A stretch of DNA of 64,000 bases from an uncultured Poribacteria bacterium (GTDB lineage: Bacteria > Poribacteria > WGA-4E > WGA-3G). Shown here one piece after another: positions 14,644-34,973 of the stretch. Position 1 is the first letter of the stretch. Each line of letters starts with the position of its first letter. Below the pieces are notes generated by a model. It was not told where the DNA came from, ran no database searches, and saw nothing but the letters and a program-made list of their open reading frames with translations. A program made the translations under genes and the position numbers. The DNA is taken from positions 352,001 to 416,000 of the forward strand of contig OX638351.1 of NCBI GenBank assembly GCA_951813565.1, given 5' to 3'.

Positions 14644-14697
14644 AGTTAGTTAACACCTTCATTTTTCATCAGTTAGTTAACACCTTCATTTTTCATC
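14644..14697. repeat. 27-bp tandem duplication spanning the stop codon
   Basis: AGTTAGTTAACACCTTCATTTTTCATC twice, only in unit 1. Confidence 0.9.
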
Positions 14698-15444
14698 GTC
14701 CGTTAGGAACGTTTCGGGGTCATACCCGGCTGTATGCTCTTCAACAAAGTTGATTTCTGGGTATGATGCTTCCACACCATAGAAATAGATTTCTTCGGGT
14801 GTAAAATACCGGTCGTGGGTCCCAACGAGGGTCCTCGGAACACGAATGGTTCTGGGATTATCAGGGGGGGACCTGACCACATGTTTTTTCCACTTTACGT
14901 AAATGGTATCCGGATAGAGTGGATAGACTCTACCGTTACTGTCATCCAAGAAACCATTAATGAAATCGTGATCGCCTTGATTCCAGAGTTTTATCAAGAC
15001 GCGATAGATCATCTCGTGATCATGCATATCGCCTTTTTGATAATTCGGGTACCTATCATCGTCCCACAGGGGTGTCATCGGAAAACCCTCGGGGGTTTCT
15101 GGAAAATCAGCGGGGACTTTTTCCTCTGAACCCATATCGTCAGGTAAAAACGTATCCGCGAGGTCAAAGGTCTCGTTTTCCAACGCCTCTGTCTCCTCGA
15201 CCATCGTTTCTATGTCCGTGTTTTCTTCGGGCGTATTCACAACGCCTTCGGTTTGAAAATCAACAGGTGCGGTGCTTGTCGCCTGCTTGTTTTCGATCAA
15301 CGACACCGCTTGCGGTCTCTTTCCAAACTCGTTTTCAGTCGTGCGTTGGGCGTGCCAAATATATAGCAGGCTGCCCCCAACAACGATGACAAAGAAAGCG
15401 AGACCGGCTTGTATCAAACGACTGGAAAGTAAATTACGAAACAT
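14686..15444 (-). CDS. Membrane-anchored hypothetical protein, paralog 1
   Basis: N-terminal TM helix, acidic linker, globular C-domain; RBS GAGGTG before ATG. Confidence 0.85.
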   Translation of the reverse strand: MFRNLLSSRLIQAGLAFFVIVVGGSLLYIWHAQRTTENEFGKRPQAVSLIENKQATSTAPVDFQTEGVVNTPEENTDIETMVEETEALENETFDLADTFLPDDMGSEEKVPADFPETPEGFPMTPLWDDDRYPNYQKGDMHDHEMIYRVLIKLWNQGDHDFINGFLDDSNGRVYPLYPDTIYVKWKKHVVRSPPDNPRTIRVPRTLVGTHDRYFTPEEIYFYGVEASYPEINFVEEHTAGYDPETFLTDDEK

Positions 15445-15582
15445 ATATATTATCACCTCTCTCTTGGGGTTGATGGAAAAATGCCTGTAAGCAATAGGTA
15501 GGTTTTAACCAAATAATGATGCAAAAACTGACGGGACCCCTCTAAACCGCCTTGCATCCTAACCAATGACAGGAATGATAAC

Positions 15583-15851
15583 ATATTTGGCAAACGGTTT
15601 CAACAAAAAATTGAACAATTTTTTGTTGAAACCTGCCCAGAAATCTGATACCTTTGACGAAATCAAAACACATCGCATCGAGCGTAATAATTGCCAGATG
15701 AGACACTCGTTCGGAAGTTCTAAGCGAAAGTCCATTATTGTTTCAAAAAGCCTTGAGATGGTCGACCTAACGATTGCTTTGTTTGCGAAGTTTCGGGTCA
15801 ATGGAAATGTGTTTGACATTGTAAATCTCGGGGCGGACAGTTTCCAAATAT
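15583..15851 (+). mobile_element. IS1-family remnant keeping the transposase C-terminus
   Basis: THRIERNNCQMRH...KRKSIIVSKSLEMVDLTIALF resembles the InsB C-terminus; same ends as 14472-14639. Confidence 0.65.
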
Positions 15852-15870
15852 CATTAGTTAGTTAACACCT

Positions 15871-16629
15871 TCATTTTTCATCGTCCGTTAGGAACGTTTC
15901 GGGGTCATACCCGGCTGTATGCTTTTCAACAAAGTTGATTTCTGGGTATGATGCTTCCACACCATAGAAATAGAGTTCTTCGGGTGTAAAAAACCGGATG
16001 TGGGTCCCAACCATGCTCCCCGGAACACGAATGGTTCTGGGTTTATCAGGGGGGGACCTGACCACATGTTTTTTCCACTTTACGTAAATGGTATCCGGAT
16101 AGAGTGGATAGACTCTACCGTTACTGGTATCCCTGATACCAGTAATGAAATTGTGATCGCCTTGATTCCAGAGTTTTATCAAGACGCGATAGATCATCTC
16201 GTGACCAGGCATATCGCCTTTTTGATAATTCGGTAACGTATCATCGTCCCACAAGGGTGTCATCGGAAAACCCTCGGGGGTTTCTGGAAAATCAGCGGGG
16301 ACTTTTTCCTCTGAACCCATATCGTCAGGTAAAAACGTATCCGCGAGGTCAAAGGTCTCGTCTTCCAACGCCTCTGTCTCCTCGACCATCGTTTCTATGT
16401 CCGTGTTTTCTTTGGGCGTATTCACAACGCCTTCGGTTTGAAAATCAACAGGTGCGGTGCTTGTCGCCTGCTTGTTTTCGATCAACGACACCGCTTGCGG
16501 TCTCTTTCCAAACTCGTTTTCAGTCGTGCGTTGGGCGTGCCAAATATACAGCAGGCTGCCCCCAACAACGATGACAAAGAAAGCGAGACCGGCTTGTATC
16601 AAACGACTGGAAAGTAAATTACGAAACAT
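15871..16629 (-). CDS. Membrane-anchored hypothetical protein, paralog 2
   Basis: Near-identical to paralog 1 except clustered C-domain substitutions. Confidence 0.85.
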   Translation of the reverse strand: MFRNLLSSRLIQAGLAFFVIVVGGSLLYIWHAQRTTENEFGKRPQAVSLIENKQATSTAPVDFQTEGVVNTPKENTDIETMVEETEALEDETFDLADTFLPDDMGSEEKVPADFPETPEGFPMTPLWDDDTLPNYQKGDMPGHEMIYRVLIKLWNQGDHNFITGIRDTSNGRVYPLYPDTIYVKWKKHVVRSPPDKPRTIRVPGSMVGTHIRFFTPEELYFYGVEASYPEINFVEKHTAGYDPETFLTDDEK

Positions 16630-16700
16630 ATATATTATCACTCCTCTCTTGGGGTTGATGGACAAATGCCTGTAAGCAATAGGTAGGTTTTAACCAAATA

Positions 16701-17196
16701 ACGTGAGTTTGATAAATCCCGTAGGGAATCAACACCGAATGCGCCTACGGCATTCGGTGGGGTAGAACGGAAATGGAGAATAAAAACAGACCGTAAAGAG
16801 AGGTTGTTGACCTATTTGAGGTCGATATTTCCAAAAAAATAAGTGAAACCCAACTCTTTAGGACTGTCAAGACGGTTGAATTGTTGGGTTTCGCTTCGCT
16901 CTACCCATAGGTGTCAACTTAAAAAAAATGCTGGATTTTCTCTTGTGGGAGGGAAACCTTGTCCGCTCGATTTTCTTCTTGTAGGAGCGAGCTCCAGCTC
17001 GCGACCGTTCGTAATATGTCGCGACCAGGAGGTCGCTCCTACAGGAAGATAAAACAGCGCACTTACAACGCGCACCTATCGTCATCTCATAAGTTGGGTA
17101 TTTAGCACGCGTAAATTTCTTTAAGTTTACACCTATGGGTTTCGCTTTGCTCTACCCAACGGACATCTATACTCATTCTAATTATCAAGCTCACGT
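16701..17196. mobile_element. IS982-derived MITE with nested elements
   Basis: Ends ACGTGAGTTTGATAA / TTATCAAGCTCACGT; flanked by TAACCAAATA direct repeats (16691-16700, 17197-17206); empty site visible in the other two units. Confidence 0.92.
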
Positions 17197-17273
17197 TAAC
17201 CAAATAATGATGTAAAAACTGACGGGACCCCTCTAAACCGCCTTGCATCCTAACCAATGACAGGAATGATAAC

Positions 17274-17543
17274 ATATTTGGCAAACGGTTTCAACAAAAA
17301 ATTGAACAATTTTTTGTTGAAACCTGCCCAGAAATCTGATACCTTTGACGAAATCAAAACACATCGCATCGAGCGTAATAATTGCCAGATGAGACACTCG
17401 TTCGGAAGTTCTAAGCGAAAGTCCATTATTGTTTCAAAAAGCCTTGAGATGGTCGACCTAACGATTGCTTTGTTTGCGAAGTTTCGGGTCAATGGAAATG
17501 TGTTTGACATTGTAAATCTCGGGGGCGGACAGTTTCCAAATAT
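17274..17543 (+). mobile_element. IS1-family remnant (copy of 15583-15851)
   Basis: Essentially identical to the unit 2 remnant. Confidence 0.65.
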
Positions 17544-17562
17544 CATTAGTTAGTTAACACCT

Positions 17563-18318
17563 TCATTTTTCATCGTCCGTTAGGAACGTTTCGGGGTCAT
17601 ACCCGGCTGTATGCTTTTCAACAAAGTTGATTTCTGGGTATGATGCTTCCACACCATAGAAATAGAGTTCTTCGGGTGTAAAATACGGGTCGTGGGTCCC
17701 AACGACACCCCTCGGAACACGAATGGTTCTGCGATTATCAGGGGGCCCGACCGTCTGTTCTTTCCACCTTACGTAAAGGGTATCCGGATAGAGTGGATAG
17801 ACTCTACCATTATTGTAATCCAAGAAACCATTAATGAAATCGTGATCGCCTTGATTCCAGAGTTTTATCAAGACGCGATAGATCATCTCGTGATCATGCA
17901 TATCGCCTTTTTGATAATTCGGGAACATATCATCGTCCCACAAGGGTGTCATCGGAAAACCCTCGGGGGTTTCTGGAAAATCAGCGGGGACTTTTTCCTC
18001 TGAACCCATATCGTCAGGTAAAAACGTATCCGCGAGGTCAAAGGTCTCGTTTTCCAACGCCTCTGTCTCCTCGACCATCGTTTCTATGTCCGTGTTTTCT
18101 TCGGGCGTATTCACAACGCCTTCGGTTTGAAAATCAACAGGTGCGGTGCTTGTCGCCTGCTTGTTTTCGATCAACGACACCGCTTGCGGTCTCTTTCCAA
18201 ACTCGTTTTCAGTCGTGCGTTGGGCGTGCCAAATATACAGCAGGCTGCCCCCAACAACGATGACAAAGAAAGCGAGACCGGCTTGTATCAAACGACTGGA
18301 AAGTAAATTACGAAACAT
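17563..18318 (-). CDS. Membrane-anchored hypothetical protein, paralog 3
   Basis: As paralogs 1 and 2. Confidence 0.85.
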   Translation of the reverse strand: MFRNLLSSRLIQAGLAFFVIVVGGSLLYIWHAQRTTENEFGKRPQAVSLIENKQATSTAPVDFQTEGVVNTPEENTDIETMVEETEALENETFDLADTFLPDDMGSEEKVPADFPETPEGFPMTPLWDDDMFPNYQKGDMHDHEMIYRVLIKLWNQGDHDFINGFLDYNNGRVYPLYPDTLYVRWKEQTVGPPDNRRTIRVPRGVVGTHDPYFTPEELYFYGVEASYPEINFVEKHTAGYDPETFLTDDEK

Positions 18319-18429
18319 ATATATTATCACCTCTCTCTTGGGGTTGATGGAAAAATGCCTGTAAGCAATAGATAGGAGAGCGCGGCAATCCTTCCATTAT
18401 TAGGTGCGAACCTACTTGCGGGGTCATTC

Positions 18430-18720
18430 TTACGGGGTTGAATCACCACCACAATTATTATCTGAAGAACAACCGCAGTTAGCGTCAGCATTACCAGGAT
18501 CAAGACAGTCACAGTTGTAGCTACCAGAGCCAGACAATTGATTGGCGCTGCCACAACAGCCACCAGTCACAGTCGTATCTCCCCCGCAACATCCTTTCGC
18601 TGCCTCAGACTCTGAGGTATCCCAACTCCCTGTTAACATGAAAATACAGCCACCAACAAACAGCAAGGCGATCACTAAGTTACCAATCGTCTTTTGATGT
18701 GTTTTCAACATTTTACTCAT
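18430..18720 (-). CDS. Secreted Cys-rich protein, short or truncated variant (96 aa)
   Basis: MSKMLKTHQKTIGNLVIALLFVGGCIF...WDTSESEAAKGCCGG; near-identical to 23738-24211 up to DANCG. Confidence 0.75.
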   Translation of the reverse strand: MSKMLKTHQKTIGNLVIALLFVGGCIFMLTGSWDTSESEAAKGCCGGDTTVTGGCCGSANQLSGSGSYNCDCLDPGNADANCGCSSDNNCGGDSTP

Positions 18721-18861
18721 TATTCTTTCCCATATAGGGGGTTTGTAAAATACAAAAGTTATACAGAGTTTAACTAAAAAATATAAAACTTTACCTGGTC
18801 GCAACGCATGTTTGTGAGGAGACACGCGTAAAGGCATAGGATCAAGTTTCTATGTAAGAAC

Positions 18862-18890
18862 ATGATACCTGAACAGCCTATTTTTGTCAA
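18862..18890 (-). promoter_or_regulatory. Sigma70-type promoter of Cys-rich gene
   Basis: TTGACA-N17-TATCAT. Confidence 0.75.
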
Positions 18891-18976
18891 GTTCTTTTGT
18901 AGAAACATAGACGGAAGGATCAATCGGTAATATTGGAGGGATGGATACTCGTGGTATCGTATCATAGAACCTGATA

Positions 18977-20941
18977 CTACAGATAAGGCGTCATATCCCA
19001 AAGCAGGATAGTGCCATCATAACTACTACTTGCCAGAAGTTTGCAATCCTTTGAAAAAGCGAGATCATGAATGTCTGTGGGATGTCCGCGGAAAGTCGCA
19101 ATGTTTTCGCCACTCGCAACATCCCACAACCGCACCGAGCATTTCTTTATACCCATATTTCGCATCCACGTTGCACCGGAAGCGAAATACCGTCCACACG
19201 GTGAAAATGCGACTGCATACGGGCTCCAACTATCCTTTGGTGGGAGGATACTCAGGACGGTTTCACGATAACTGATATCCCATAAGAGTATTTCCTCTCT
19301 CCGACCAAGGACTATCAAGGTGCTACAAGGTGAAAACGCAAACGCATAAATTCTTTCTGGAAACGCTTCAATCGGTTCACCGCTTTCAACGTCCCACATG
19401 CGGGAATTTAACCCGGACTCTTCTGTCTTGCTCACAATTTTCTTTTCATCTGGGCTAAATCCTATAAAATCGATCCAACCCGTATGCGCTTTGATCTGGT
19501 GTTGTATGTCCTGTTGCTCCACATCCCACACATACATTGTGCCATCACTATCCCCGCATGCCAGCAGGTTGGTTTTGTGTGCGAATACAGACGCTGATAC
19601 TACCAGATGCTCTTGTCCAATAGAAGGTTTTTTCGCGTCGGGAAGAGTGAAAGTAGCAATTGGGGTCTCGTTATTTCCAATGTCCCACACTTCTGCAGTT
19701 TTGCCGTCGATCCCGGTAGCGTAGATTTTTCCTTGTGTCGATGCAGAGACAACATAACTTTCTCCAGGTAGATTGAGACAGGAGGAAAGGGCGGGGAGTT
19801 GGGTCATATCCCATAACCTCACTTTATCGCTCCAATACCCAGCTGCGAGTGTTTTCCCATCTGGTGAAAAAACAAGCGAAATAGGAACACCGGTATGTAA
19901 ATGCTGGAACGAACGCGGTTCAGAATCACCCCTCGTCCATTTTCTAAACTCACGGGGATTGTAGAAAGGCAAAACAAATGGGGTGCCATTAGGAACGTGG
20001 GCACCCTGAAGGACACTCTGCACTTCAAGTGACAGGTCGCATTTTTCACGGAGCACCACATCCCATACGACATAGGTACCGTCAGACTTTTGGGTAGCAT
20101 GCAGAACACCCGATGGTGAATAAAAGACTCGCATATGTCCTGTGCTAAAATCGTGGTAGCTATGTGTCCGCTGCCAATTAGCAACTGACCATACCAAAAC
20201 AGGACCATTCCTTCTACCGGAAGTGAGAAAACAACCACACGGAGAAAAACAGAGACTCTGCACAAAACGCTCGGTATCTGTCAGGCAAGCAAGTTGTTCA
20301 CCGGTCTCTACATCCCATACTGCGATGAAATCGGTAGAACCATCAGGGAAACGAATCTCACCATTAGAGTCTGCACGCACCAAAAGACTTTCATCTGGCA
20401 TTGTACATGCAAATAGACTACCATCTGTAGAAAAAGCAATGGGACGACTGGCGCGACCACGCCATCTGAACTTATTCGGGTCATCGCAAAGTTTGGTGAG
20501 ACATTCCCCAGTTGCTGGATGATAAATGTATAAGAGATAATCTCGGTTGCTGGACACAGCGAGGCGTTGACTATCCGGTGAAAACACAAGTCGTGAAACC
20601 ATATGATAGGATTTCTCATCTTCATCCCGTTCCATCTGCGCAACGCAAACACCCCGCTGTACATCCCATACCTTCACGAGACCGTCGCCATCCCCAGTAG
20701 CCAGCCACCGACCATCTGGAGAAATGGAGACAACGGAAATAATACCACGATCTGTATCCCACAATGCAGTCGGGGTCATGGTGGATAATTCATACCACCA
20801 GACCCCTATAGTACTACCGAATGCAAAGTGTTTCCCATCAGGGGAATATACTATGTCAGACATTATTCCCCCTTGTCCTAATCGGTAAATTGCATCATCA
20901 GGCAATTCCCACATCGGAATCTCGTTTTTTTTATGTTTCAT
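18977..20941 (-). CDS. Cytoplasmic WD40-repeat protein (double propeller size)
   Basis: MWELPDDAIYRLGQG cap, WD repeats, ends LLWDMTPYL; ATG overlaps the end of the upstream Cys-rich gene. Confidence 0.92.
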   Translation of the reverse strand: MKHKKNEIPMWELPDDAIYRLGQGGIMSDIVYSPDGKHFAFGSTIGVWWYELSTMTPTALWDTDRGIISVVSISPDGRWLATGDGDGLVKVWDVQRGVCVAQMERDEDEKSYHMVSRLVFSPDSQRLAVSSNRDYLLYIYHPATGECLTKLCDDPNKFRWRGRASRPIAFSTDGSLFACTMPDESLLVRADSNGEIRFPDGSTDFIAVWDVETGEQLACLTDTERFVQSLCFSPCGCFLTSGRRNGPVLVWSVANWQRTHSYHDFSTGHMRVFYSPSGVLHATQKSDGTYVVWDVVLREKCDLSLEVQSVLQGAHVPNGTPFVLPFYNPREFRKWTRGDSEPRSFQHLHTGVPISLVFSPDGKTLAAGYWSDKVRLWDMTQLPALSSCLNLPGESYVVSASTQGKIYATGIDGKTAEVWDIGNNETPIATFTLPDAKKPSIGQEHLVVSASVFAHKTNLLACGDSDGTMYVWDVEQQDIQHQIKAHTGWIDFIGFSPDEKKIVSKTEESGLNSRMWDVESGEPIEAFPERIYAFAFSPCSTLIVLGRREEILLWDISYRETVLSILPPKDSWSPYAVAFSPCGRYFASGATWMRNMGIKKCSVRLWDVASGENIATFRGHPTDIHDLAFSKDCKLLASSSYDGTILLWDMTPYL

Positions 20942-21374
20942 CACAATCGCCAGCGCATTGATCAGCTCTCGTGCAAATGCTTCTGTCACAACTATTACCT
21001 AAGCACGACCCATCTGTACTTGTATTCTGACAACTTGTTGTTCCGTCACTTTTCTGTGCAGGACAAGCCCGTTTTGGGGTTGCATCGTTACAAGTGTCAT
21101 TGTCTGCGGGGTCACAGTTGTCGGTACTGCAGGATGTAGTAGTAGAAACACACTTACAACTCTCACTATCGCTAACAGTATCTGCTTCACCTCCGCCACA
21201 GCAGCCGCCAGCCAAGACAGCCTCTGTCGTCTTTCCACCGCAGCAACTACTCACAGCCTCAGTCTCTGAGGTATCCCAACTGCCTGTCAGCAAGAAAATA
21301 CAGCCACCAACAAACAATAAAGCGATTATTACGTTTCCAATGGTGTTCTGGTGGGTTTTAAACATTTTAGACAT
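20931..21374 (-). CDS. Secreted Cys-rich protein (147 aa)
   Basis: Conserved leader plus 16 Cys in the mature region; RBS AAAGGA. Confidence 0.85.
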   Translation of the reverse strand: MSKMFKTHQNTIGNVIIALLFVGGCIFLLTGSWDTSETEAVSSCCGGKTTEAVLAGGCCGGGEADTVSDSESCKCVSTTTSCSTDNCDPADNDTCNDATPKRACPAQKSDGTTSCQNTSTDGSCLGNSCDRSICTRADQCAGDCDET

Positions 21375-21605
21375 TATTCTTTCCTTTCCCATATAGGGGG
21401 ATTGTAAATATGAACCCCTAAGAGTTAAACATATTTTAAACAAAAAACATAAAAGATTTTACCTTGCCGAAACGCATGTTTGCGAGGAGACACGCGTAAA
21501 GACATACTATTTTTGTCAAGTATTTTGTAGAAACATAGACGGAAGGATCAATAGGTAGTGATGAAGGGATGGATACTCGTGGCTATCGCATCATAGAACT
21601 TGATA

Positions 21606-23645
21606 CTACAGATAAGGCGTCATATCCCAAAGCAGAATAGTCCCATCAAAACTTCCGCTTGCCAAAATCTTGCCATCCGGTGAGAAAGCGAGATCATCAA
21701 TGTCTGTGGAATGTCCCCAGAAGGTATGGACGTATTCCCCTGTGGCGACCTCCCATAAATGGATGGCCATCTGCTCTAAACCATTTTTCCACCAAGTGCC
21801 GGAAGCGAGATACCGTCCACAAGGTGAAAATGCCAGCCGATAGGTCCGAGAAGCATCTGCGGGTAGCAGTATCGCCATTCGTGTTTCCAAGGTTGCTGCA
21901 TCCCACAGTCTAATCTCATGAGCTATTTCCCATCTCCGTTCGCGAGACAACTTACCGGCAACGAGAGTGCCGCACGGAGAAAACTTGATACTGCCGGGAG
22001 TGACAGCCGCATCAGTTGGCTGCTGCGTCCCCAACTCCTGTTTCCACTCAATGAATTGTTGGATTTCTTGGGATCGCCCTTTATATAGCGATGTATCTTC
22101 TAAGATTGTGTCTAAAGGGAGTGAACCTACCTGTTCACCATTCTCTACATTCCAGACCCGTGCAGTTCTGTCATGGGATCCGGTGACGAGTTGCTTACCA
22201 TCAGGGTGAAATACCATATTTGTAATCTCATCCGTGTGCCCTATGAGTTCGTGCCGCTTCTCCCATTGATGCGTGTCCCATACATAGATCCCATCGGGCA
22301 TAGATCCACTGACCAAACAATCTCCTGCCGGTGAGTAAGCCATCCACTGAACAGTGTTCTCATGTTCAGTCAGTTTAGCAATTAGGGTGCCAGATGTAAT
22401 ATGCCAGACGTTGATAGCGATGTCAGTGCTATGGTTGACTCCTAAGGCAGATGCAGCAAGAAATTCTTCACAAGGGGACAAAACACATTTAAGACCCAAT
22501 CTAATACCCAAAGAGGACTCCTCTGTTTTGGGACGGAAGATTCGTTGTAACTGACGATTCATTACAGACCAGACCAGAAATCCAAATCTGAGTCCACTAA
22601 TCAACGTCTTTCCTTTTTGAGAGAAACGCAACCATCTGACGATGGTTGTATGTGCATCAGGCATAGGCACGACTCTAATTGATTTGTCTGCTGCCCATAC
22701 TCGGAATTCGCGTGCGTTAGCGGCTACGAAATGTGTCGCATCGTCTGAAAAGCAATATAATGTCCTGCGCCTTTCAAATTCCAAAGTGTCTACCTTTTCG
22801 CGCTGCACCGTATCCCACATCACAACCTTTCCCTCATGGACTTCTGCAACACGCAATGTTCCATCAGGCGTATAAGCAAGTTTCATATAAGTCGTGTTGC
22901 ATGCGGAATACACTATTTCTGAGGTAGCGTTGTGAACATTACACACTTGCACATCGCCATTCCTGTGCGCCGATGCAAGGTATTGACCACACGGGGAAAA
23001 TACAAGACCTTGAAATATCAAAGGGGCAGGACAACCAAAGTCTATAATATGTTCACCGGTGTCTATATCTGAAATCGTTATAGTGTCCTGAGGAGACACA
23101 GAAGACACATGCGCGAGTAGATGCCCATTAGGTGAAAAGCAGATAGGCAAGCTATGTCCCTTCGTATCTTCATCATCAATCAGGAACCGCTCGACGGGTT
23201 CATCAGATTTTGTTTGCCAACTGTAGACAGCAGTTCGTCCGCTGCTGGACATAGCAAGATATTGCCCATCCTGCGAAAAGTGGAGCGCATTAACACTGGA
23301 ACCACCCATATTCCCACGGTAGTCTATCTTAGTGATGCACCGCAGGGTTTGTGTGTCCCATACCTTAACGATGCCATCCGCGTTGCCGGTAGCAATCCAC
23401 CGCGCATCCCGAGAAAAGGCGATCATATCAAGCATACCCCGTTCTGTCTCAAACAATGCAAGGGGGGTAAGTGTGGGTAAATCATACAACCAACATCCGA
23501 TGAAAGTTGCGACAGCAAGAGACTTCCCATCGGGTGAAAATGAGATAGCCCGCAGGACACCACGCCCCAATCGAGCAATTGCCCCTTCGGGTAGTTCCCA
23601 TGCTGTCACATCAGTAACGGTAGGTTGCATTTGAGCAGTAACCAT
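21606..23645 (-). CDS. Cytoplasmic WD40-repeat protein (start uncertain)
   Basis: TAWELPEGAIARLGRG cap; near-duplicate of 24472-26547. Confidence 0.92.
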   Translation of the reverse strand: MVTAQMQPTVTDVTAWELPEGAIARLGRGVLRAISFSPDGKSLAVATFIGCWLYDLPTLTPLALFETERGMLDMIAFSRDARWIATGNADGIVKVWDTQTLRCITKIDYRGNMGGSSVNALHFSQDGQYLAMSSSGRTAVYSWQTKSDEPVERFLIDDEDTKGHSLPICFSPNGHLLAHVSSVSPQDTITISDIDTGEHIIDFGCPAPLIFQGLVFSPCGQYLASAHRNGDVQVCNVHNATSEIVYSACNTTYMKLAYTPDGTLRVAEVHEGKVVMWDTVQREKVDTLEFERRRTLYCFSDDATHFVAANAREFRVWAADKSIRVVPMPDAHTTIVRWLRFSQKGKTLISGLRFGFLVWSVMNRQLQRIFRPKTEESSLGIRLGLKCVLSPCEEFLAASALGVNHSTDIAINVWHITSGTLIAKLTEHENTVQWMAYSPAGDCLVSGSMPDGIYVWDTHQWEKRHELIGHTDEITNMVFHPDGKQLVTGSHDRTARVWNVENGEQVGSLPLDTILEDTSLYKGRSQEIQQFIEWKQELGTQQPTDAAVTPGSIKFSPCGTLVAGKLSRERRWEIAHEIRLWDAATLETRMAILLPADASRTYRLAFSPCGRYLASGTWWKNGLEQMAIHLWEVATGEYVHTFWGHSTDIDDLAFSPDGKILASGSFDGTILLWDMTPYL

Positions 23646-23737
23646 AGGCACAAATTTATGCTCTCGTTGATATCTTTCTTGACCAGCTAAAGTAAAGAAA
23701 AGCATGTAAGACCCAAGTTGAAAGACTTAGGTCTTAC

Positions 23738-24211
23738 TTACTCTGTATTACCAGCACAAGTGCCGTCATCCGGGTTGGGTTCGCCAACACAAACACCATC
23801 GTTGTAGAAGTTATCCCTATTACAAACTGTATCCCCAGGTCGTTCTCCATCATCACGCTCTTTATAGCAAAAACCATCAGGCGAACCACAGCTATCACTA
23901 CATCCTGTCTTACATCCCAAAGTTTTAGTTGTGGCACTACAATTATTGCTTTCAGTACACTTACCGCAGTTAGCGTCAGCATTACCAGGATCAAGACAGT
24001 CACAGTTGTAGCTACCAGAGCCAGACAATTGATTGGCGCTGCCACAACAGCCACCAGTCACAGTCGTATCTCCCCCGCAACATCCTTTCGCTGCCTCAGT
24101 CTCTGAGGTATCCCAACTCCCTGTCAGCAGAAAAATACAGCCACCCACAAACAACAAGGCGACCGCTAAGTTTCCAATTGTATTTTGATGTGTTTTCAAC
24201 ATTTTACTCAT
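23738..24211 (-). CDS. Secreted Cys-rich protein (157 aa)
   Basis: Conserved leader plus 16 Cys in the mature region. Confidence 0.85.
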   Translation of the reverse strand: MSKMLKTHQNTIGNLAVALLFVGGCIFLLTGSWDTSETEAAKGCCGGDTTVTGGCCGSANQLSGSGSYNCDCLDPGNADANCGKCTESNNCSATTKTLGCKTGCSDSCGSPDGFCYKERDDGERPGDTVCNRDNFYNDGVCVGEPNPDDGTCAGNTE

Positions 24212-24355
24212 TATTCTTTCCTTTCACATATAGGGTTTGTAAAATACAAAAGTTATACAGAGTTTAACTAAAAAATATAAAACTTTACCTGGTCGCAACG
24301 CATGTTTGTGAGGAGACACGCGTAAAGGCATAGGATCAAGTTTCTATGTAAGAAC

Positions 24356-24384
24356 ATGATACCTGAACAGCCTATTTTTGTCAA
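24356..24384 (-). promoter_or_regulatory. Sigma70-type promoter of Cys-rich gene
   Basis: TTGACA-N17-TATCAT, same as 18862-18890. Confidence 0.75.
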
Positions 24385-24471
24385 GTTTTTTGTAGAAAAT
24401 ATGGACGGAAGGATCAAGAGGTGGTATTGAAGAGATGGATATTCGTGGCGGCTGTATCATAAAACTTGATA

Positions 24472-26547
24472 CTACAGATAAGGCGTCATATCCCATAGCA
24501 GGATAGTGCCATCAAAACTTCCGCTTGCCAAAATCTTGCCATCCGGTGAGAAAGCGAGATCATCAATGTCTGTGGAATGTCCCCAGAAGGTATGGACGTA
24601 TTCCCCTGTGGCGACCTCCCATAAATGGATGGCCATCTGCTCTAAACCATTTTTCCACCAAGTGCCGGAAGCGAGATACCGTCCACAAGGTGAAAATGCC
24701 AGCCGATAGGTACAAGAAGCATCTGCGGGTAGCAGTATCGCCATTCGTGTTTCTAAGGTTGCTGCATCCCACAGTCTAATCTCATTAGCTATTTCCCATC
24801 TCCGTTCGCAAGACAACTTACCGGCAACGAGAGTGCCGCACGGAGAAAACTTGATACTGCCGGGAGTGACAGCCGCATCAGTTGGCTGCTGCGTCCCCAA
24901 CTCCTGTTTCCACTCAATGAATTGTTGGATTTCTTGGGATCGCCCTTTATATAGCGATGTATCTTCTAAGATTGTGTCTAAAGGGAGTGAACCTACCTGT
25001 TCACCATTCTCTACATTCCAGACCCGTGCAGTTCTGTCACGGGATGCGGTGACGAGCTGCTTACCATCAGGGTGAAATACCACATTTGTAATCGCATCCG
25101 TGTGCCCTATGAGTTCGTGCCGCTTCTCCCATTGATGCGTGTCCCATACATAGATCTCACCGGACAGAGATCCACTGACCAAACAATCCCCTGTCGGTGA
25201 GTAAGCTATCCGACTAAAACGTTTCTCATGTCCAGTCAGTTTAGCAATTAGGGTGCCAGATGTAATATGCCAGACGTTGATAGCGATGTCGGTGCTATGG
25301 TGGACTCCTAAGGCAGATGCAGCAAGAAAGTCTTCACAAGCAAGAAATTCTTCACAAGGGGACAAAACACATCTACGACCCAATCTAATACCCAAAGAGG
25401 ACTCCTCTGTTTTGGGACGGAAGATTCGTTGTAACTGACGATTCATTACAGACCAGACCAGAAATCCAAATCTGAGTCCACTAATCAACGTCTTTCCTTT
25501 TTGAGAGAAACGCAACCATCTGACGATGGTTGTATGTGCATCAGGCATAGGCACGACTCTAATTGATTTGTCTGCTGCCCATACTCGGAATTCGCGTGCG
25601 TTAGCGGCTACGAAATGTGTCCCATCGTCTGAAAAGCAATATAATGTCCTGCGCCTTTCAAATTCCAAAGTGTCTACCTTTTCGCGCTGCACCGTATCCC
25701 ACATCACAACCTTTCCCTCATGGACTTCTGCAACACGCAATGTTCCATCAGGCGTATAAGCAAGTTTCATATAAGTCGTGTTGCATGCGGAATACACTAT
25801 TTCTGAGGTAGCGTTGTGAACATTACACACTTGCACATCGCCATTCCTGTGCGCCGATGCAAGGTATTGACCACACGGGGAAAATACAAGACCTTGAAAT
25901 ATCAAAGGGGCAGGACAACCAAAGTCTATAATATGTTCACCGGTGTCTATATCTGAAATCGTTATAGTGTCCTGAGGAGACACAGAAGACACATGCGCGA
26001 GTAGATGCCCATTAGGTGAAAAGCAGATAGGCAAGCTATGTCCCTTCGTATCTTCATCATCAATCAGGAACCGCTCGACGGGTTCATCAGATTTTGTTTG
26101 CCAACTGTAGACAGCAGTTCGTCCGCTGCTGGACATAGCAAGATATTGCCCATCCTGCGAAAAATGGAGCGCATTAACACTGGAACCACCCATATTCCCA
26201 CGGTAGTCTATATTAGTGACGCACCGCAGGGTTTGTGTGTCCCATACCTTAACGATGCCATCCGCGTTGCCGGTAGCAATCCACCGCGCATCCCGAGAAA
26301 AGGCGATCATATCAAGCATACCCCGTTCTGTCTCAAACAATGCAAGGGGGGTAAGTGTGGGTAAATCATACAACCAACATCCGATGAAAGTTGCGACAGC
26401 AAGAGACTTCCCATCGGGTGAAAATGAGATAGCCCGCAGGACACCACGCCCCAATCGGGCAATTGCCCCTTCGGGTAGTTCCCATGCTGTCACATCTGTG
26501 CCGTCAAGTGGTTTCAATGCGTTAGAGAAAGCGTCTCTATTTTCCAT
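24472..26547 (-). CDS. Cytoplasmic WD40-repeat protein
   Basis: RBS AGGAG; WELPEGAIARLG cap; WD repeats. Confidence 0.93.
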   Translation of the reverse strand: MENRDAFSNALKPLDGTDVTAWELPEGAIARLGRGVLRAISFSPDGKSLAVATFIGCWLYDLPTLTPLALFETERGMLDMIAFSRDARWIATGNADGIVKVWDTQTLRCVTNIDYRGNMGGSSVNALHFSQDGQYLAMSSSGRTAVYSWQTKSDEPVERFLIDDEDTKGHSLPICFSPNGHLLAHVSSVSPQDTITISDIDTGEHIIDFGCPAPLIFQGLVFSPCGQYLASAHRNGDVQVCNVHNATSEIVYSACNTTYMKLAYTPDGTLRVAEVHEGKVVMWDTVQREKVDTLEFERRRTLYCFSDDGTHFVAANAREFRVWAADKSIRVVPMPDAHTTIVRWLRFSQKGKTLISGLRFGFLVWSVMNRQLQRIFRPKTEESSLGIRLGRRCVLSPCEEFLACEDFLAASALGVHHSTDIAINVWHITSGTLIAKLTGHEKRFSRIAYSPTGDCLVSGSLSGEIYVWDTHQWEKRHELIGHTDAITNVVFHPDGKQLVTASRDRTARVWNVENGEQVGSLPLDTILEDTSLYKGRSQEIQQFIEWKQELGTQQPTDAAVTPGSIKFSPCGTLVAGKLSCERRWEIANEIRLWDAATLETRMAILLPADASCTYRLAFSPCGRYLASGTWWKNGLEQMAIHLWEVATGEYVHTFWGHSTDIDDLAFSPDGKILASGSFDGTILLWDMTPYL

Positions 26548-26658
26548 GAAATATCTCCTTTATTGCTAATGAGCGCGTGAGGTAAGGCAAACCGCGCTCG
26601 ATGATTTATGCGATGCAAACAGCATCACTGTGTAATAGATAAATTGACTTGATATGCG

Positions 26659-28635
26659 TTATGAACCGATAATAGATTTCACGTCCCATAGCAGGATAGT
26701 GCCATCATAACTACTGCTTGCCAGAAGTTCGCCATCCGGTGAAAAAGCGAGATCCTGCACATCCGATGTATGCCCCCAGAAGGTCTGGATGTTTTCTCCA
26801 GTGGCAACCTCCCATAAACGGATGGAGACTTTGTCTGTTTTGTTCCACCAAGAACCGGAGGCAAGATACCGACCACATGGAGAAAACACCACGACACCAA
26901 CATGGGAGCAACTCTCAGGTAGAATCATCCCCATGTGAGGCTCCAAAGTTGCAGCGTCCCACAGATGAATCCCACCGAATAATCCAGCAGCCAAAAAAGT
27001 ACCGCAAGGTGAAAATGTAATCGAATGGAGATACTTTGAAGGTTTGTAACGTGGCTGGATTTGTCTCTGGATTTGTCGCATATCTCCTTTATATAGGGCA
27101 ACAAAGGTGGAATCTACAGCAGGTGAACCGAGTTGTTCACCACTCGTAATGTCCCAAATAGATATACCATATCTCCCGTCAGCAGTAGCGAATCGCTTTC
27201 CGTTGGGGTGAAAGGCTGTTGCCCGAAGCGGCTCTGCATGCTCTATAAATGCGTGCTGCTTTTCCCAACCTTGGACACGCCACACAACAAGTTTTCCATC
27301 TATATCACCGCTGATGAGGTGTTCCCCTGATGGTGAAAACACCACAGTGGTGATAAGACTTTGGTGTCCGGTGAGTTCTGCTATCTTGGTTCCGGACTTA
27401 ATGTTCCAGACTTCAAGCGTTTGTCCACCTTTTCCGATGAGTGCTAATAATTCTTCACAAGGGGACAGCGCACAACCTCTTTTTCCGCCGCCGATTTTTT
27501 GCGGAATTGGGGGAGGTATCATCTGTTTCTGACCAACATCCCAGAAAACGATACGATGATCGCTCAAGCCCCAGTACTTGCAAACCAGCATCTTACCCGA
27601 TTGATAAAAAAATAGAGAGTCGGGCACACCATTAGGCACTGTGAGTGGTGCTACTATGGTAGGTGAGCCTGCATGCCATACGCGTATCTCGCGTTCAGTT
27701 GCAATTGCACATTGCTGTCCATCATTTGATAAACATTCTACCCGGTACTTTCCTTGATATTCGATGGTGTCAAGTTTTTCATTCTGAGACGCATTCCACA
27801 TTACTATCTTGTCTTCATACACATCTGCCACCTGCAATGCCCCCTCAGGGGAATAGGCGAGAATCACCCGAGTTCCGTTGTAGGCGGTGTAAGTTGTTTC
27901 CAAGGTCTCTTTACCAATATTCCACACTTGCACCTCAATGTTCTCACGTGTAGTCGGGTCCTGAATACTCGCAGCAAGAAACTGACTACAGGGTGAAAAG
28001 GCGAGATCATACACATGTGCTGATTCGCGCAGATGACACAGATAAGCAAAGCATTCTTTCGTTTTTAGGTTTCGGACAGTAATGGTGGTCCAGTCAGAAG
28101 CATAAGCGAGCAGCTGCCCATCGGGTGAAAAGCAGATTGGGAAACGGGCAGGAGAGCGTTCACCTTCCTTCAGTGTGCCTCCCACTTTGAAACTTGCGAC
28201 GTGTGCCCCGGTTTTTGTGCACCAGACGTAAACGTCGCCGTATCCGTGGCCGGATGCGGTAATGTATTGGCTATCTGGTGAGAAGGCAAGTCGAGAGGTA
28301 CCTCCGTGCCAGCCTTGTATCTTCGCGACACGCTGCTGGGTCTCTATTTCTCGCACATTGATGATGCCGTCCCCGTTGCTGGTGGCAACCCATTTTCCAT
28401 CGGGTGAAAGAAGGACATTACCAACTATGCCTCGTTCGGTTTCAAATAATGTGACAGGCTGCATAGTGTTGAGTTCAAACATCCATACCCCGACGCGAGT
28501 CGCCACAGCAAGAGATTTCTTGTTCGGAGCAACCGTTATGTCGTTTATAATTCCTCGTCCTAATCTACTGACTGCCCCTTCGGGCAGTGCCCATGTTGTT
28601 ATATCGCTGTTTGTCTGTGGTCGTCGATTTTCCAT
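26659..28635 (-). CDS. Cytoplasmic WD40-repeat protein
   Basis: WALPEGAVSRLG cap; WD repeats. Confidence 0.93.
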   Translation of the reverse strand: MENRRPQTNSDITTWALPEGAVSRLGRGIINDITVAPNKKSLAVATRVGVWMFELNTMQPVTLFETERGIVGNVLLSPDGKWVATSNGDGIINVREIETQQRVAKIQGWHGGTSRLAFSPDSQYITASGHGYGDVYVWCTKTGAHVASFKVGGTLKEGERSPARFPICFSPDGQLLAYASDWTTITVRNLKTKECFAYLCHLRESAHVYDLAFSPCSQFLAASIQDPTTRENIEVQVWNIGKETLETTYTAYNGTRVILAYSPEGALQVADVYEDKIVMWNASQNEKLDTIEYQGKYRVECLSNDGQQCAIATEREIRVWHAGSPTIVAPLTVPNGVPDSLFFYQSGKMLVCKYWGLSDHRIVFWDVGQKQMIPPPIPQKIGGGKRGCALSPCEELLALIGKGGQTLEVWNIKSGTKIAELTGHQSLITTVVFSPSGEHLISGDIDGKLVVWRVQGWEKQHAFIEHAEPLRATAFHPNGKRFATADGRYGISIWDITSGEQLGSPAVDSTFVALYKGDMRQIQRQIQPRYKPSKYLHSITFSPCGTFLAAGLFGGIHLWDAATLEPHMGMILPESCSHVGVVVFSPCGRYLASGSWWNKTDKVSIRLWEVATGENIQTFWGHTSDVQDLAFSPDGELLASSSYDGTILLWDVKSIIGS

Positions 28636-28670: not shown

Positions 28671-30713
28671 TTAAGTGCCTATAAACGGTTTCATATCCCA
28701 GAGTAGAAGAGTGCCGTCATAACTGCTGCTTGCCAAAAGTGTGCCATCCGGTGAAAAGACTAAATCCTGCACATCCGATGTATGTCCCCAGAAAGTGTGG
28801 ATGTTTTCACCGGTAGCGACTTTCCACAACTGGATTGGTACTCTATCTGTTTTGCACCACCATGAACCGACAGCGAGATAGTGACCACTTGGGGAAAATG
28901 CAAGTGCGAAAGGTCTTCTACTGGTCTCAGGCAGCCGAATCACCATACGTATTTGCGAAGTATTTGCGTTCCACAATATAACTTCGTCTTCACGTCCACA
29001 GGCGATGACGGCACCGCAGGGAGAAAATGCTACAGCATGAAGAACTGGATCCAAACGTCGCTGATGTTTAGGATTTTCCGCTTCTTGGGTTTCTTGTGAC
29101 TCGCCTTTGTACAGAGGTGAAACGTCTAAAGTTTCTGGCAAGGGAAGCGTAGCAAGATGTTCACCGCTTTCCACATCCCAAACGCGCGCTTTATCGTTAT
29201 GAGAAATAGCGGCAACCTGCTTGCCATCAGGGTGAAATGACACTCTCTTATCTCCCATTCGCCATTGTGCTGCTCCTATGCATTCATTTTCATCTGGCGT
29301 AAGCGAATGTTGTTTTTCCCAACGCTTGGCATCCCATACAAAGAGTTCGCCTTTTTTTCCGGCACTGACAAGGTATTCACCGGTAGGTGAGAAGCTAAAC
29401 GAAATTACATGACTTTCATGCGCGGTGAGTTCAGCGATTAATTTTTCTGAGTCAATGTTCCAGACTTTGATGTTCCCGTCCCTTGTTTCAGCCGCTATAA
29501 GCTCATCAAATGGAGATAGCGCCACCGTCCTTCGTAAAGGAGAGCGTTCTTCGGTCAGGGTTGGGAATATCCGCTGGGTTTTCCTGCTCTCAATATTCCA
29601 AAAGACCTTACCTGCTGTACCCCAGTAACTACTGACCAATGTCTTGCTGTCCTGTGAGAATACTACCGAAAAGGCGTGCGGTTTATATTCAGGGAATAAC
29701 GCTACTCCAGAAGCGGATCCTGCTTTCCATACCTTCAGATTGCCGCTCGTGTTTGCAATTGCGAATTGCGTTGCGTCGGTTGAGAAACACGCTGCAGTCG
29801 TCGTTGTTCCGCGGGAGTCAAAGGTATCCAACTTTTCCTGCTGCGACACATCCCAAATCTGCACCTCGTTCTTGTGAATGTTGGCAATCCTCATTGTGCC
29901 ATCAGACGTATAGGCCAATCTTACCCTATTCCCATTATATGTAGTCGGAGTCATTACATGGGTTTTGTTGTGAATATCCCAGACCTGCACTTCATTGTCT
30001 AAGGTCGCAGTGGCAAGGTCCTGTCCGCAAGGGGAAAAGATGGCGGAATGCACTGGTGCAGTGTGTCCAGTGAGATGAGCAATCTGTTCGCCGGTGTCTA
30101 CGTCTGAAATCGTGACAGCGTCTATAGCGGTCACATACGCGAGCTGGTTACCGACAGGTGAAAAAGAGACAGGAAAACAACGGTCGCCATAATATCCTCT
30201 TAAGTAATCCTTTCTCTTTGCCTTTTCAATAGTGAAACTCATGATAGAGGTGTCGGTGTCTGTACGCCATGTATAGACAGCACTATGTGCGAAGCCTGAT
30301 GTAGCGAGATATTGTCCATCTTGCGAAAAGTGGAGATGTAAAAGGCTATCAAAGTTTCGAGTGCTTCCCCAATCTATTTTCGTAATGCACTGTCCGTTTT
30401 GTGTATCCCATACTTTAACAATGCCGTCTTGATCGCCGGTGGCGATCCATCGCATATCATGCGAGAAGGTAGCAACATTAAGCATCCCGCGCTCTGTGCC
30501 CCACAAAGCCCGAGGAGTCATTGTTGCCATGTCATATATCCAGAACCCGATTTTGGTTGCAACGGCAAGATATGCACCATCGCGCGAATATTCGACACCA
30601 AGTAGTGCCCCCTGTCCCAACCTACCAATTGCCCCTTCAGGTAGTTCCCATGTTGTTACATCCGTGTCGTCAATAGGTCTAAATGCAGGGGTTATAGGTT
30701 TTCTGTTTTCCAT
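28671..30713 (-). CDS. Cytoplasmic WD40-repeat protein
   Basis: WELPEGAIGRLG cap; WD repeats. Confidence 0.93.
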   Translation of the reverse strand: MENRKPITPAFRPIDDTDVTTWELPEGAIGRLGQGALLGVEYSRDGAYLAVATKIGFWIYDMATMTPRALWGTERGMLNVATFSHDMRWIATGDQDGIVKVWDTQNGQCITKIDWGSTRNFDSLLHLHFSQDGQYLATSGFAHSAVYTWRTDTDTSIMSFTIEKAKRKDYLRGYYGDRCFPVSFSPVGNQLAYVTAIDAVTISDVDTGEQIAHLTGHTAPVHSAIFSPCGQDLATATLDNEVQVWDIHNKTHVMTPTTYNGNRVRLAYTSDGTMRIANIHKNEVQIWDVSQQEKLDTFDSRGTTTTAACFSTDATQFAIANTSGNLKVWKAGSASGVALFPEYKPHAFSVVFSQDSKTLVSSYWGTAGKVFWNIESRKTQRIFPTLTEERSPLRRTVALSPFDELIAAETRDGNIKVWNIDSEKLIAELTAHESHVISFSFSPTGEYLVSAGKKGELFVWDAKRWEKQHSLTPDENECIGAAQWRMGDKRVSFHPDGKQVAAISHNDKARVWDVESGEHLATLPLPETLDVSPLYKGESQETQEAENPKHQRRLDPVLHAVAFSPCGAVIACGREDEVILWNANTSQIRMVIRLPETSRRPFALAFSPSGHYLAVGSWWCKTDRVPIQLWKVATGENIHTFWGHTSDVQDLVFSPDGTLLASSSYDGTLLLWDMKPFIGT

Positions 30714-32720: not shown

Positions 32721-33226
32721 TAAATCTCCTTTGTACAATATTTTCTGTAGTCTATCTAAAAACAGTAAGCTTGATTTACGATACGCAGCGTTTATAGACG
32801 CACAATTCATTGTGCGTGATAGGTTGGATTAATACTGTGAAACCGGCAAATTTGGGATTTATCAGATACTTTCTAATAAAATAGACACGTCGAGGCACAG
32901 GCACCCCGCGCTGCAAATGAACAAGGAATGGGGTAGAAAGTTATTCTTTATGTTCAAAGTCAAATGAATAAGGTAATCAACTGAACGCTAATATCAGTAA
33001 CGCCGTGGAGGCGTGAATATAGTCAATAGGATTAAAAGTCTACTCGCAACTATACATATGTTCCCTATTGGGACACATTCGGTGCGATGAAACTAAACAC
33101 AAGTTGAAGATATTTCCTTATAGGTAGGATATTGTTGGGTGGATAATGACAAAACTATGCGAAACCTGATCAAATGTTGGTAGGATGTTAATTAATTTAA
33201 ATGATTGGAGAATTTAGGAAAAGAAA

Positions 33227-33300: not shown

Positions 33301-33413
33301 CTGAGAGAAGTAAGAAAGTATGTTTTTTGAAAGTTAAATAGGAAGTCGTATATGCCTTGTAAAGTTTAGAGCGTAATGAACAAGGAGATTGTGTGAGAAT
33401 ACCCTTGTTATTG

Positions 33414-34973
<1,560 letters not shown>

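Follow-up and report, generated by a model that had tools for sequence, protein, structure and literature searches.

Poribacteria are dominant, uncultivated symbionts of sponges. Although counts of their numerous WD40 and other eukaryote-like repeat proteins are available (PMC3909097), these proteins are still without an explanation. The present analysis concerns a stretch of 64,000 nucleotides (nt), the window, from the 5.43-Mb single-contig genome of an uncultured Poribacteria bacterium (assembly GCA_951813565.1, contig OX638351.1, positions 352,001 to 416,000). Here, three small genes for cysteine-rich (Cys-rich) proteins, denoted CysA, CysB and CysC, are interleaved with the last genes of a tandem WD40 array. 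The locus raises the question whether the Cys-rich and WD40 genes belong together and, if so, what such a pair may do. A preliminary description of the window had proposed an undescribed polymorphic two-gene system. As detailed below, the Cys-WD40 pair recurs in relatives, where it is inherited, duplicated and diversified as one unit, and it matches no described system; a function at the cell envelope is tentatively proposed.

The Cys-WD40 unit in the window and in relatives

On the minus strand, a tandem array of six WD40 genes, encoding proteins of 658–699 amino acids (aa), comes after the 16S rRNA gene and tRNA-Ile, and all three Cys-rich genes share this orientation. CysA (23738-24211, 157 aa) comprises a basic 11-aa tail, a hydrophobic helix, an acidic linker, the motifs CCGG and GGCCG and a variable 12-Cys domain. 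Its stop codon lies 32 nt from a 699-aa WD40 double propeller (21606-23705), which matches PF00400 and many propeller families and has no hydrophobic segment at its N-terminus. CysB (20931-21374 from the MSKMF start, 147 aa) has the same leader and CC motifs, followed by a divergent 12-Cys domain, and its 3′ end is overlapped by the start of the next WD40 double propeller (18977-20989). CysC (18430-18720) is a 96-aa short form with the C-terminus ...NCGGDSTP, and the gene on its 3′ side encodes a 255-aa single-helix membrane protein (17563-18330) rather than a WD40 protein. The threefold unit of Cys-rich gene and downstream gene reported in the preliminary description is confirmed, with WD40 as the downstream gene of CysA and CysB only. 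The 11-nt overlap between CysB and its WD40 gene, from which translational coupling had been suggested, holds if ATG 20941 is used as start and amounts to 59 nt with GTG 20989. It does not extend to a general rule: from the Cys stop codon to the WD40 entry motif the spacers measure 13–544 nt across units, and several contain strong hairpins. As other units have almost no spacer, the coupling between the two genes appears to vary from unit to unit.

The association was followed in relatives of the Cys-rich family. A WD40 gene of one subfamily is the next gene for 34 of the 35 evaluable Cys genes that are not short forms. In a first set of 29 distinct family open reading frames (ORFs), all 17 with at least 130 aa precede a WD40 gene, one of them masked by ORF overlap and resolved later, and three CysC-type genes each have the 255-aa gene next to them. 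Three ORFs of this set are of intermediate length (100–114 aa), with WD40 next to one and a different neighbour next to another, the 108-aa ORF of locus L013; the third, which closes the array of one relative, G036, is followed only by a WD40 fragment and then a 342-aa gene. Six short forms (85–88 aa) adjoin a conserved dehydrogenase-like gene and have no WD40 gene. A second set held 22 ORFs, five of which were already counted; the other 17 all belong to a sister genus, where WD40 is next in 15 of 16 evaluable cases, the exception (L067) having another gene at this position and one further ORF lying at a contig end. Two divergent copies at 1.56 Mb in the window genome each precede WD40 as well (2/2). 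In G036, approximately 13 alternating Cys-WD40 units occupy 40 kb, together with leader-only remnants. Here, orthologs (79% identity) of the WD40 gene 26659-28635, which lacks a partner in the window, have Cys genes upstream, and orthologs of the WD40 gene 18977-20989 (59–65% identity) follow Cys genes in the sister genus. Because the same unit recurs in relatives, it is considered real beyond chance. CysC is regarded as a conserved variant and not a fresh truncation since the short form and the 255-aa gene recur together in two other genomes (loci L006 and L007).

Divergence of the mature Cys domain and of the downstream WD40 protein is correlated (Mantel r = 0.74, n = 25; none of 5000 permutations gave so high a value), both within the genus of the window (r = 0.77, n = 11) and within the sister genus (r = 0.70, n = 13). 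For six units flanked by WD40 genes on both sides, the correlation is r = 0.85 with the downstream and r = 0.08 with the upstream gene. As the divergence tracks the downstream and not the upstream WD40, the Cys gene and the WD40 gene behind it form a co-duplicating unit. Both the adjacency of leader homologs to this WD40 subfamily outside the window and the co-divergence of the two genes bear out the pairing suspected in the preliminary description. Co-divergence is compatible with partner specificity, and also with co-duplication. Co-folding of the WD40 protein 21606-23705 with CysA, in which either protein had an alignment of its own, gave a score of 0.00 in a run made without controls and weighs neither way.

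The family itself is narrowly distributed. A word-indexed search returned 45 relatives, and among 1.84 billion representative proteins, searched exhaustively with a profile, no more than 38 clusters reached E ≤ 0.001. With a narrow profile, 35 of 176 genomes of the phylum were matched, all from one taxonomic family (34 of the 111 other genomes there), and none of 64 genomes from ten other families of the phylum. A broad profile that includes divergent members matched 61 of the 112 genomes of this one Candidatus Poribacteria family, in five of six genera, with 1–12 matches per genome. The window genome holds five members, namely CysA, CysB, CysC and the two divergent proteins at 1.56 Mb (locus L092, 1560001-1567000; 153 and 145 aa, 13 Cys, without CC motifs), which were missed by the first search with CysA. 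None of the three Cys-rich proteins of the window matched a Pfam family at E ≤ 0.01, and for the Cys-rich family there was no match in NCBIfam or PADLOC and no relative in a profile search of all Protein Data Bank sequences; CysA gave no usable match in a language-model protein atlas. The WD40 proteins yielded generic repeat matches only in PADLOC. Literature searches, which did not cover supplementary files, found nothing on the Cys-rich family or on the Cys-WD40 pairing. In this respect, the proposal of an undescribed polymorphic two-gene unit agrees with the library searches. Two metagenomic relatives (P0170 and P0195) carry an additional conserved C-terminal block of ~70 aa with a weak match to Ntox24 (E = 0.12, 13 bits at a cut-off of 24). 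A search of the 112 genomes of the family did not reveal this block, and no other protein with the block was found.

Architecture and evolution of the Cys-rich proteins

CysA, CysB and CysC have a 43-residue N-terminus in common, followed by CCGG...GGCCG. The leader consensus reads MSKM(L/F)KTHQ(N/K)TIGN, a hydrophobic stretch, and WDTSE(T/S)EA, so that the shared leader and core of the preliminary description are retained with a leader of 43 residues. Residues 11–29 are hydrophobic (Kyte-Doolittle values of 2.25–2.43 over 19 residues), the tail preceding them carries a net charge of +2 or +3, the segment following them −2 or −3, and the outward part −13. Given the basic tail before the helix and the acidic segment behind it, a topology with the tail inside and the domain outside is predicted; the Cys-rich domain is thus most likely held outside the cytoplasmic membrane. 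By our own reading of the alignments, [ST]-x-A is conserved immediately before the first CC in both genera, and the helix may serve as a signal-anchor or, with possible cleavage at this motif, as a long signal peptide. Assignment as a bacterial lipoprotein was considered on the basis of L-F-V-G-G-C in the genus of the window and rejected, since the Cys is replaced by F, A, V or G in sister-genus and divergent members and hydrophobic residues continue past the candidate lipobox Cys.

CysA and CysB are 48% identical and contain 17 cysteines each, one in the hydrophobic stretch and 16 beyond it. The count of 16 given earlier for both full-length copies is therefore correct for the part beyond the membrane helix, not for the whole protein. 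Sixteen cysteines beyond the helix suggest eight disulfides. The same number is the commonest among the mature domains (32 of 59 distinct sequences), and 41 of these 59 domains have an even and 18 an odd count. Cysteine columns C70, C72, C85, C91, C100, C108, C115, C130 and C141 are kept throughout the family alignment. The earlier statement that the proteins diverge completely after the core has to be revised accordingly: the cysteine framework persists and the loops change fast. In composition, the mature domains (n = 59) are dominated by Gly (15.7%), Cys (14.6%), Ser (10.2%), Asp (10.2%), Thr (9.2%) and Asn (7.4%) and are poor in aromatic residues (Y 1.7%, F 1.3%, W 0.1%). CC and CxC motifs occur in the family alignment. 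Structure prediction for CysA from a 44-row alignment gave a mean predicted local distance difference test (pLDDT) score of 44.3 and no usable fold.

The p-distances among Cys copies span 0.24–0.73. Substitution rates were estimated by the Nei-Gojobori method for 15 Cys genes, for which 41 of 105 pairs were usable. The ratio of non-synonymous to synonymous rates (dN/dS) has a median of 0.15 in the leader and of 0.48 in the mature domain, and the mature domain reaches 0.71–0.97 in the four least-saturated pairs. The synonymous divergence of the leader is discordant with that of the mature domain, which is attributed to gene conversion. In two units of G036, the WD40 proteins are separated by a p-distance of 0.08 and the Cys domains by 0.54.

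WD40 proteins of the array and of the genome

All six WD40 genes of the window match PF00400 with 145–179 bits (cut-off 27), and many two-propeller families match as well. At their N-termini, the Kyte-Doolittle maximum over 19 residues is 1.17, i.e. no hydrophobic segment is present. Genome-wide, 26 ORFs carry the WD40 entry motif; three of them have a Cys gene upstream, and a fourth pair has a divergent motif. Among the unpartnered paralogs of the window, the gene 24472-26547 (minus strand) combines a body 96% identical to that of the partnered 21606-23705 with an N-terminus of the MENR type. It is a chimera of an unpartnered-type N-terminus and a partnered-type body, which suggests gene conversion between the two genes. 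At its 3′ end, as at other WD40 3′ ends, a short hairpin GTATCA...TGATAC (24450-24475, minus strand) starts in the stop-codon region CTGTAG. Three further paralogs without Cys partners follow in tandem on the minus strand (26659-28635, 28671-30713 and 30732-32810), all with PF00400 matches.

The same propellers occur in a second setting. Eleven long ORFs with a sigma domain were checked in the window genome, and nine of them have a hydrophobic helix after this domain. Two encode extracytoplasmic function (ECF) sigma-helix-WD40 fusions of 949–1082 aa, one near 1302795 (plus strand), which matches the entry-motif pattern, and one near 1944899 (minus strand), which has a variant outside the pattern used; other sigma-helix ORFs run on into different C-terminal regions. 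The helix and linker of these two fusions do not resemble the Cys family, nor are they rich in cysteine. Because entry-motif propellers are fused to an ECF sigma domain and a membrane helix in the same genome, this WD40 family appears to be used in envelope signalling. ECF57-type sigma factors with WD40-like C-terminal extensions are on record (PMC8999054).

Gene neighbourhood in the sister genus

In the sister genus, the order is ECF sigma factor (in some loci), Cys, WD40, MacB-type permease, a 342-aa outer-membrane-like protein and an STT3-like enzyme. The two-gene picture of the preliminary description stands as far as the pair is concerned, and falls short here in that the pair sits within a larger cluster. 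Of the 20 loci L066–L085, 6 have an ECF sigma gene upstream, five with the order sigma-Cys-WD40 and one with divergent orientation. The permease (429 aa, MacB_PCD and FtsX) comes after WD40 in 15 of 16 evaluable units. Often found behind it, the 342-aa protein is rich in His and Met, carries a signal peptide and is predicted to be all-beta. In a comparison by language-model features, 27 of its 30 matches are outer-membrane transporters of the PF13557 type; it has no Pfam match even at E ≤ 10, and its structure prediction reached a pLDDT of 31.3. Invariant His/Met-rich stretches and an aromatic C-terminus are seen in this protein (771-1799 of locus L023) and its orthologs, which hints at metal handling by an outer-membrane barrel. 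In the window genome, the 1.56-Mb locus keeps the 342-aa gene after the divergent Cys-WD40 pairs.

An STT3-like protein of 767–804 aa is often the next product, and its full-length orthologs flank Cys-WD40 units in relatives. The motif of oligosaccharyltransferases is WWDYG; the STT3-like proteins of the relatives have xWDYG or xWNYG. The possibility that the Cys domains are N-glycosylation substrates of this enzyme was tested and dismissed: N-x-S/T sequons number 78 compared to 87.4 ± 8.0 in shuffled sequences, i.e. there is no enrichment, and extended D/E-x-N-x-S/T sequons in mature domains number 7 compared to 12.6 ± 3.3. In the window, an STT3-like gene cut to 275 aa (11596-12423, minus strand) adjoins a DDE transposase gene (10610-11551) and represents what is left of the cluster's conserved flank.

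Upstream regions, hairpins and sequencing runs

The units also share DNA outside the coding regions. There is a leader block of 181 nt in three copies (75–82% identical) and an upstream block of 63 nt, likewise in three copies (86–100% identical); the 5′ halves of CysC and CysA together with their upstream DNA are 90–92% identical. Distal sigma-70-like promoter candidates were located upstream of CysA (24356-24384) and CysC (18862-18890), both on the minus strand and both reading TTGACA-17-TATCAT with 11 of 12 consensus matches. These are the two best of 22 sites in a scan of 17400-27000, a total that is not above shuffled sequences (16.2 ± 4.7). The distal block of CysA is conserved in copies of the same genus. 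Closer to the gene, a proximal conserved block (24212-24280, minus strand) contains a Shine-Dalgarno-like AAGGAA before the start codon. When 21 upstream regions from two genera are aligned, a near-invariant block ending ...GaAAGGAAagAAt..AATG stands out, which in our own interpretation may be read as a −35/−10 pair. Every copy of the Cys gene has its own conserved upstream block and Shine-Dalgarno-like site.

Between the CysA stop codon and the annotated WD40 ATG, a hairpin of 13 base pairs followed by a T-rich run (23706-23737, minus strand) resembles a terminator. The orthologous units of two relatives (L027 and L023) have retained its stem, one of them with a different loop. Stop-codon read-through from Cys into WD40 was tried as an explanation for the arrangement and rejected, a shared frame with a single stop being found in only 4 of 26 units (frame counts 6, 13 and 7).

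Expression was looked up in four sequencing runs, all available as contigs, of which run X1 alone is recorded as RNA. X1 contains pieces that correspond to 22160-22896 (28 differing letters and 25 gaps over 752) and 18981-19024 (44 nt), both in WD40 genes and probably from a relative of the window genome. Two other runs are only guessed to be RNA: X3 holds a short piece over 23823-24019, inside CysA, and in X2 one contig joins the leader regions 24149-24192 and 21357-21391.

Proposed function and alternatives

From the order of genes in the sister genus we infer an ancestral cluster of ECF sigma factor (in some loci), Cys-rich protein, WD40 protein, MacB-type permease, outer-membrane barrel-like protein and STT3-like enzyme, and it is on account of this cluster that the function is placed at the cell envelope. 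The Cys-WD40 pair is tentatively viewed as a lineage-specific, diversifying envelope module in which each unit would be a small operon, an interpretation that we prefer while holding it with less than firm conviction. The first gene would encode a protein of ~150 aa with an 11-residue basic cytoplasmic tail, a hydrophobic helix (22 residues, strongly conserved), an acidic linker, the vicinal-cysteine motifs CCGG and GGCCG and a domain of ~100 residues in which Gly, Cys, Ser, Asp, Thr and Asn abound, cysteines are fixed and loops change fast. The product of the second gene, a double WD40 propeller of 650–700 aa without an export signal, would probably act as a cytoplasmic scaffold or adaptor. 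The Cys-rich protein may then be the variable outward component of one machine, engaged in binding or shielding or itself being exported, with the WD40 protein as inward-facing partner, and the tandem arrays may serve as the symbiont's repertoire of variants toward host, phage or competitors. Export, disulfides, any contact between the two proteins and the biological target are inferred throughout.

Several observations weigh against this interpretation. None of seven short solo homologs has a WD40 gene beside it, a Cys partner accompanies only 4 of the at least 27 WD40 paralogs of the window genome, and strong hairpins between the two genes in several units may uncouple their expression. Co-divergence of the pair can be explained by co-duplication alone. 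The envelope context is borrowed from relatives, because units in the genus of the window lack the MacB-type gene and this genus has no ortholog of the sister-genus sigma factor (best 24–35% identity). Even where the MacB-type protein is present, its divergence is not correlated with that of either Cys or WD40 (r = −0.10 and −0.33, n = 7), and it is far more conserved (mean p-distance 0.33 compared to 0.58 for each of Cys and WD40); joint variation of a Cys-WD40-MacB trio was looked for in these seven units and not seen. Finally, positive selection is not demonstrated, as dN/dS exceeds 1 in no pair.

A rather unlikely elaboration is a repertoire of receptors, in which each disulfide-braced ectodomain recognises a different outside ligand (of host, phage or neighbouring microbe) and signals to its own WD40 protein. 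The signal would pass via the invariant helix and the tail to the co-diversifying cytoplasmic propeller, and the pairs would represent a split relative of the sigma-helix-WD40 sensors, i.e. an expandable array of matched sensor-adaptor pairs. Direct binding of the variable domain by the WD40 protein, in the manner of toxin and immunity protein or of ligand and receptor as envisaged in the preliminary description, is disfavoured because the variable domain is predicted outside and the WD40 protein has no export signal. The few partnered WD40 paralogs and the absence of a toxin domain among the window proteins likewise speak against such contact pairings. More narrowly, a toxin with WD40 as cognate immunity protein, or a ribosomally synthesized and post-translationally modified peptide (RiPP) precursor matured by enzymes encoded elsewhere, would fit a conserved N-terminus, a polymorphic C-terminus and a gene directly downstream, and is nevertheless judged highly improbable. 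The two predicted compartments differ, as judged from hydropathy and charge only, and the scans found no toxin family among the window proteins and no defence family in PADLOC. To our knowledge, a propeller of 650–700 aa is unlike known immunity proteins, and a hydrophobic helix in the leader followed by a ~110-aa core is unlike RiPP precursors. No leader-recognising or modifying enzymes occur among the window ORFs scanned, and the single PqqD-like domain of the genome, at 3.44 Mb, is far from all five family members. The remark in the preliminary description that no modifying enzymes are nearby is thus upheld for RiPP enzymes within the window, and needs amendment for the truncated STT3-like gene 6 kb downstream.

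Two further explanations are unlikely. In one of them there is no functional coupling at all: the Cys gene arose in one WD40 locus and hitch-hiked with duplication and gene conversion, and the products act independently. The 23 of 26 motif-bearing WD40 ORFs without a Cys gene would be expected in this case, as would short solo homologs and a CysC form that do without WD40 and terminator-like or repetitive extragenic palindrome-like hairpins between the genes of several units. Gene conversion is evident from the discordant synonymous rates and the chimeric WD40 gene 24472-26547, and co-duplication by itself yields co-divergence. What this explanation leaves unaccounted for is an adjacency that persists over two genera at a Cys-domain divergence of up to ~70%, including 15 of 16 single-copy loci of the sister genus, together with spacers of 13–64 nt or overlapping ORFs in several units and a fixed Cys-WD40-MacB gene order. 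The other is an extracytoplasmic metallothionein-like protein, whose cysteines, those of the CCGG and GGCCG pairs included, would bind Cu(I) or other soft metals, with the outer-membrane protein and the permease moving metal out and additional copies raising the capacity. As in metallothioneins, cysteine positions alone are conserved, and the domain is strongly acidic with 14.6% Cys and very few hydrophobic residues. Metal stress can lead to tandem arrays of metallothionein genes, as in the case of yeast CUP1, and the 342-aa neighbour has its invariant His/Met-rich stretches. Copper-responsive ECF sigma factors with cysteine-rich domains exist (CorE; PMC8999054). We regard this option as doubtful, since the Cys copies are old and strongly diverged and not recent identical amplicons, the preference for even cysteine counts suits disulfides at least equally, a near-obligate WD40 partner is left unexplained, and the scanned neighbours yielded no metal-resistance family. 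Moreover, exported proteins in an oxidising compartment are normally disulfide-bonded.

A secreted bacteriocin-like antimicrobial appears distinctly unlikely. The domain would be released at competitors, with permease and outer-membrane protein exporting it or protecting the producer, the sigma factor in control and WD40 as an accessory. Conserved leader, hypervariable mature part and fixed cysteine scaffold recur in toxin and defensin families, MacB-type pumps are known to export a disulfide-rich enterotoxin and to protect against peptides, and the weak Ntox24 match of P0170 and P0195 points in the same direction. This match is not significant, however, and the block turned up in none of the 112 family genomes searched; a domain with a net charge of −13 is unlike most membrane-active peptides, the ORF maps show no double-glycine leader, C39 peptidase or small immunity gene, and units of the window's genus lack the MacB-type gene. 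Very unlikely, finally, is a split version of the sigma-helix-WD40 design in which sigma factor, single-helix Cys protein and WD40 protein act as one sensor controlling the sigma factor. The sigma-Cys-WD40 order in five loci, with one more in divergent orientation, mirrors the domain order of the fused ECF57-like proteins, and the window genome itself encodes such fusions with the same entry motif, in line with the recorded WD40-like extensions of ECF57. Anti-sigma cytoplasmic domains before the helix typically have ~50–90 residues. The cytoplasmic tail of the Cys protein, with 11 residues (~12 in the sister genus), is too short for a known domain of this kind, the fusion helix and linker are unrelated to the Cys family, the propeller of the fusions lies beyond the membrane helix whereas the WD40 proteins discussed here have no export signal, and the sigma gene is missing in most loci and in the genus of the window.

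Relation to known systems

In returning to the proposed envelope module, comparison with described systems reveals partial likenesses. Conopeptide superfamilies, defensins and the nodule-specific cysteine-rich (NCR) peptides of legumes similarly combine a conserved targeting region, fixed cysteines, fast loops and multiple paralogs. These families are eukaryotic and consist of small released peptides with no obligatory neighbour gene, whereas the hydrophobic segment of the Cys protein is long enough for an anchor and a WD40 gene is nearly always next to it. ECF57-type sigma factors are approached by the fusion of the same WD40 subfamily to ECF sigma domains in the window genome and by the free sigma gene before the pair in the sister genus, but the parts are separate genes in the present case, the WD40 proteins lack an export signal and such a sigma gene is missing at the locus in the genus of the window. 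Type VII ATP-binding cassette (ABC) systems (MacB/LolCE/FtsX) come to mind because a permease follows WD40 in the sister genus, often with an outer-membrane-like protein behind it; in contrast to these, no ATPase or adaptor gene is seen in the cluster, and the permease is absent from window units and without co-variation.

Polymorphic toxin cassettes of the contact-dependent inhibition (CDI) or Rhs kind share the conserved N-terminus, the variable C-terminus, a downstream gene and arrays of variants. Here, however, there is no toxin domain, the downstream gene encodes a large and mostly unpartnered propeller, and the predicted compartments differ. With metallothioneins, the family has in common the abundance of cysteine, few hydrophobic residues, conservation of cysteines only and tandem copies. 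It differs in its predicted export and its anciently diverged copies, and the Cys content of metallothioneins is higher than 14.6%.

Other features of the window

The 255-aa protein next to CysC is the first of three tandem paralogs on the minus strand without an assigned family (the others at 15871-16665 and 14686-15456). Throughout this trio (14686-18330), one N-terminal helix precedes an acidic middle part, and the intervening 300-nt stretches are up to 100% identical. Further along, at 12503-13510 (minus strand), a single-propeller WD40 protein has a clear N-terminal signal peptide; the G+C content of this stretch is higher, at 0.53. On the other side, the WD40 array comes directly after a complete 16S rRNA gene and tRNA-Ile(GAT) (33227-34973, minus strand). 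The window contains neither a 23S nor a 5S gene, which suggests that the rRNA genes are unlinked. A DUF1501 gene stands beside a PSCyt2/PSD1 (DUF1549/DUF1553) gene at 959-4958 (minus strand), a pairing common in Planctomycetes-like genomes, and a sulfatase gene is located at 6477-7943.

Conclusions

With the Cys-WD40 unit, part of the WD40 expansion of Poribacteria gains a fixed partner, an unannotated, fast-evolving and predicted-exported Cys-rich protein. These WD40 proteins are also tied to a conserved envelope gene cluster, and an entry in a list of repeat proteins becomes a module that can be tested. If the cysteines were to bind metal, the unit would bear on metal handling in sponges. 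Ectodomains facing host or phages, if this is their role, would make the arrays a bacterial case of repertoire evolution, which is otherwise familiar from the cysteine-rich peptide families of animals and plants.

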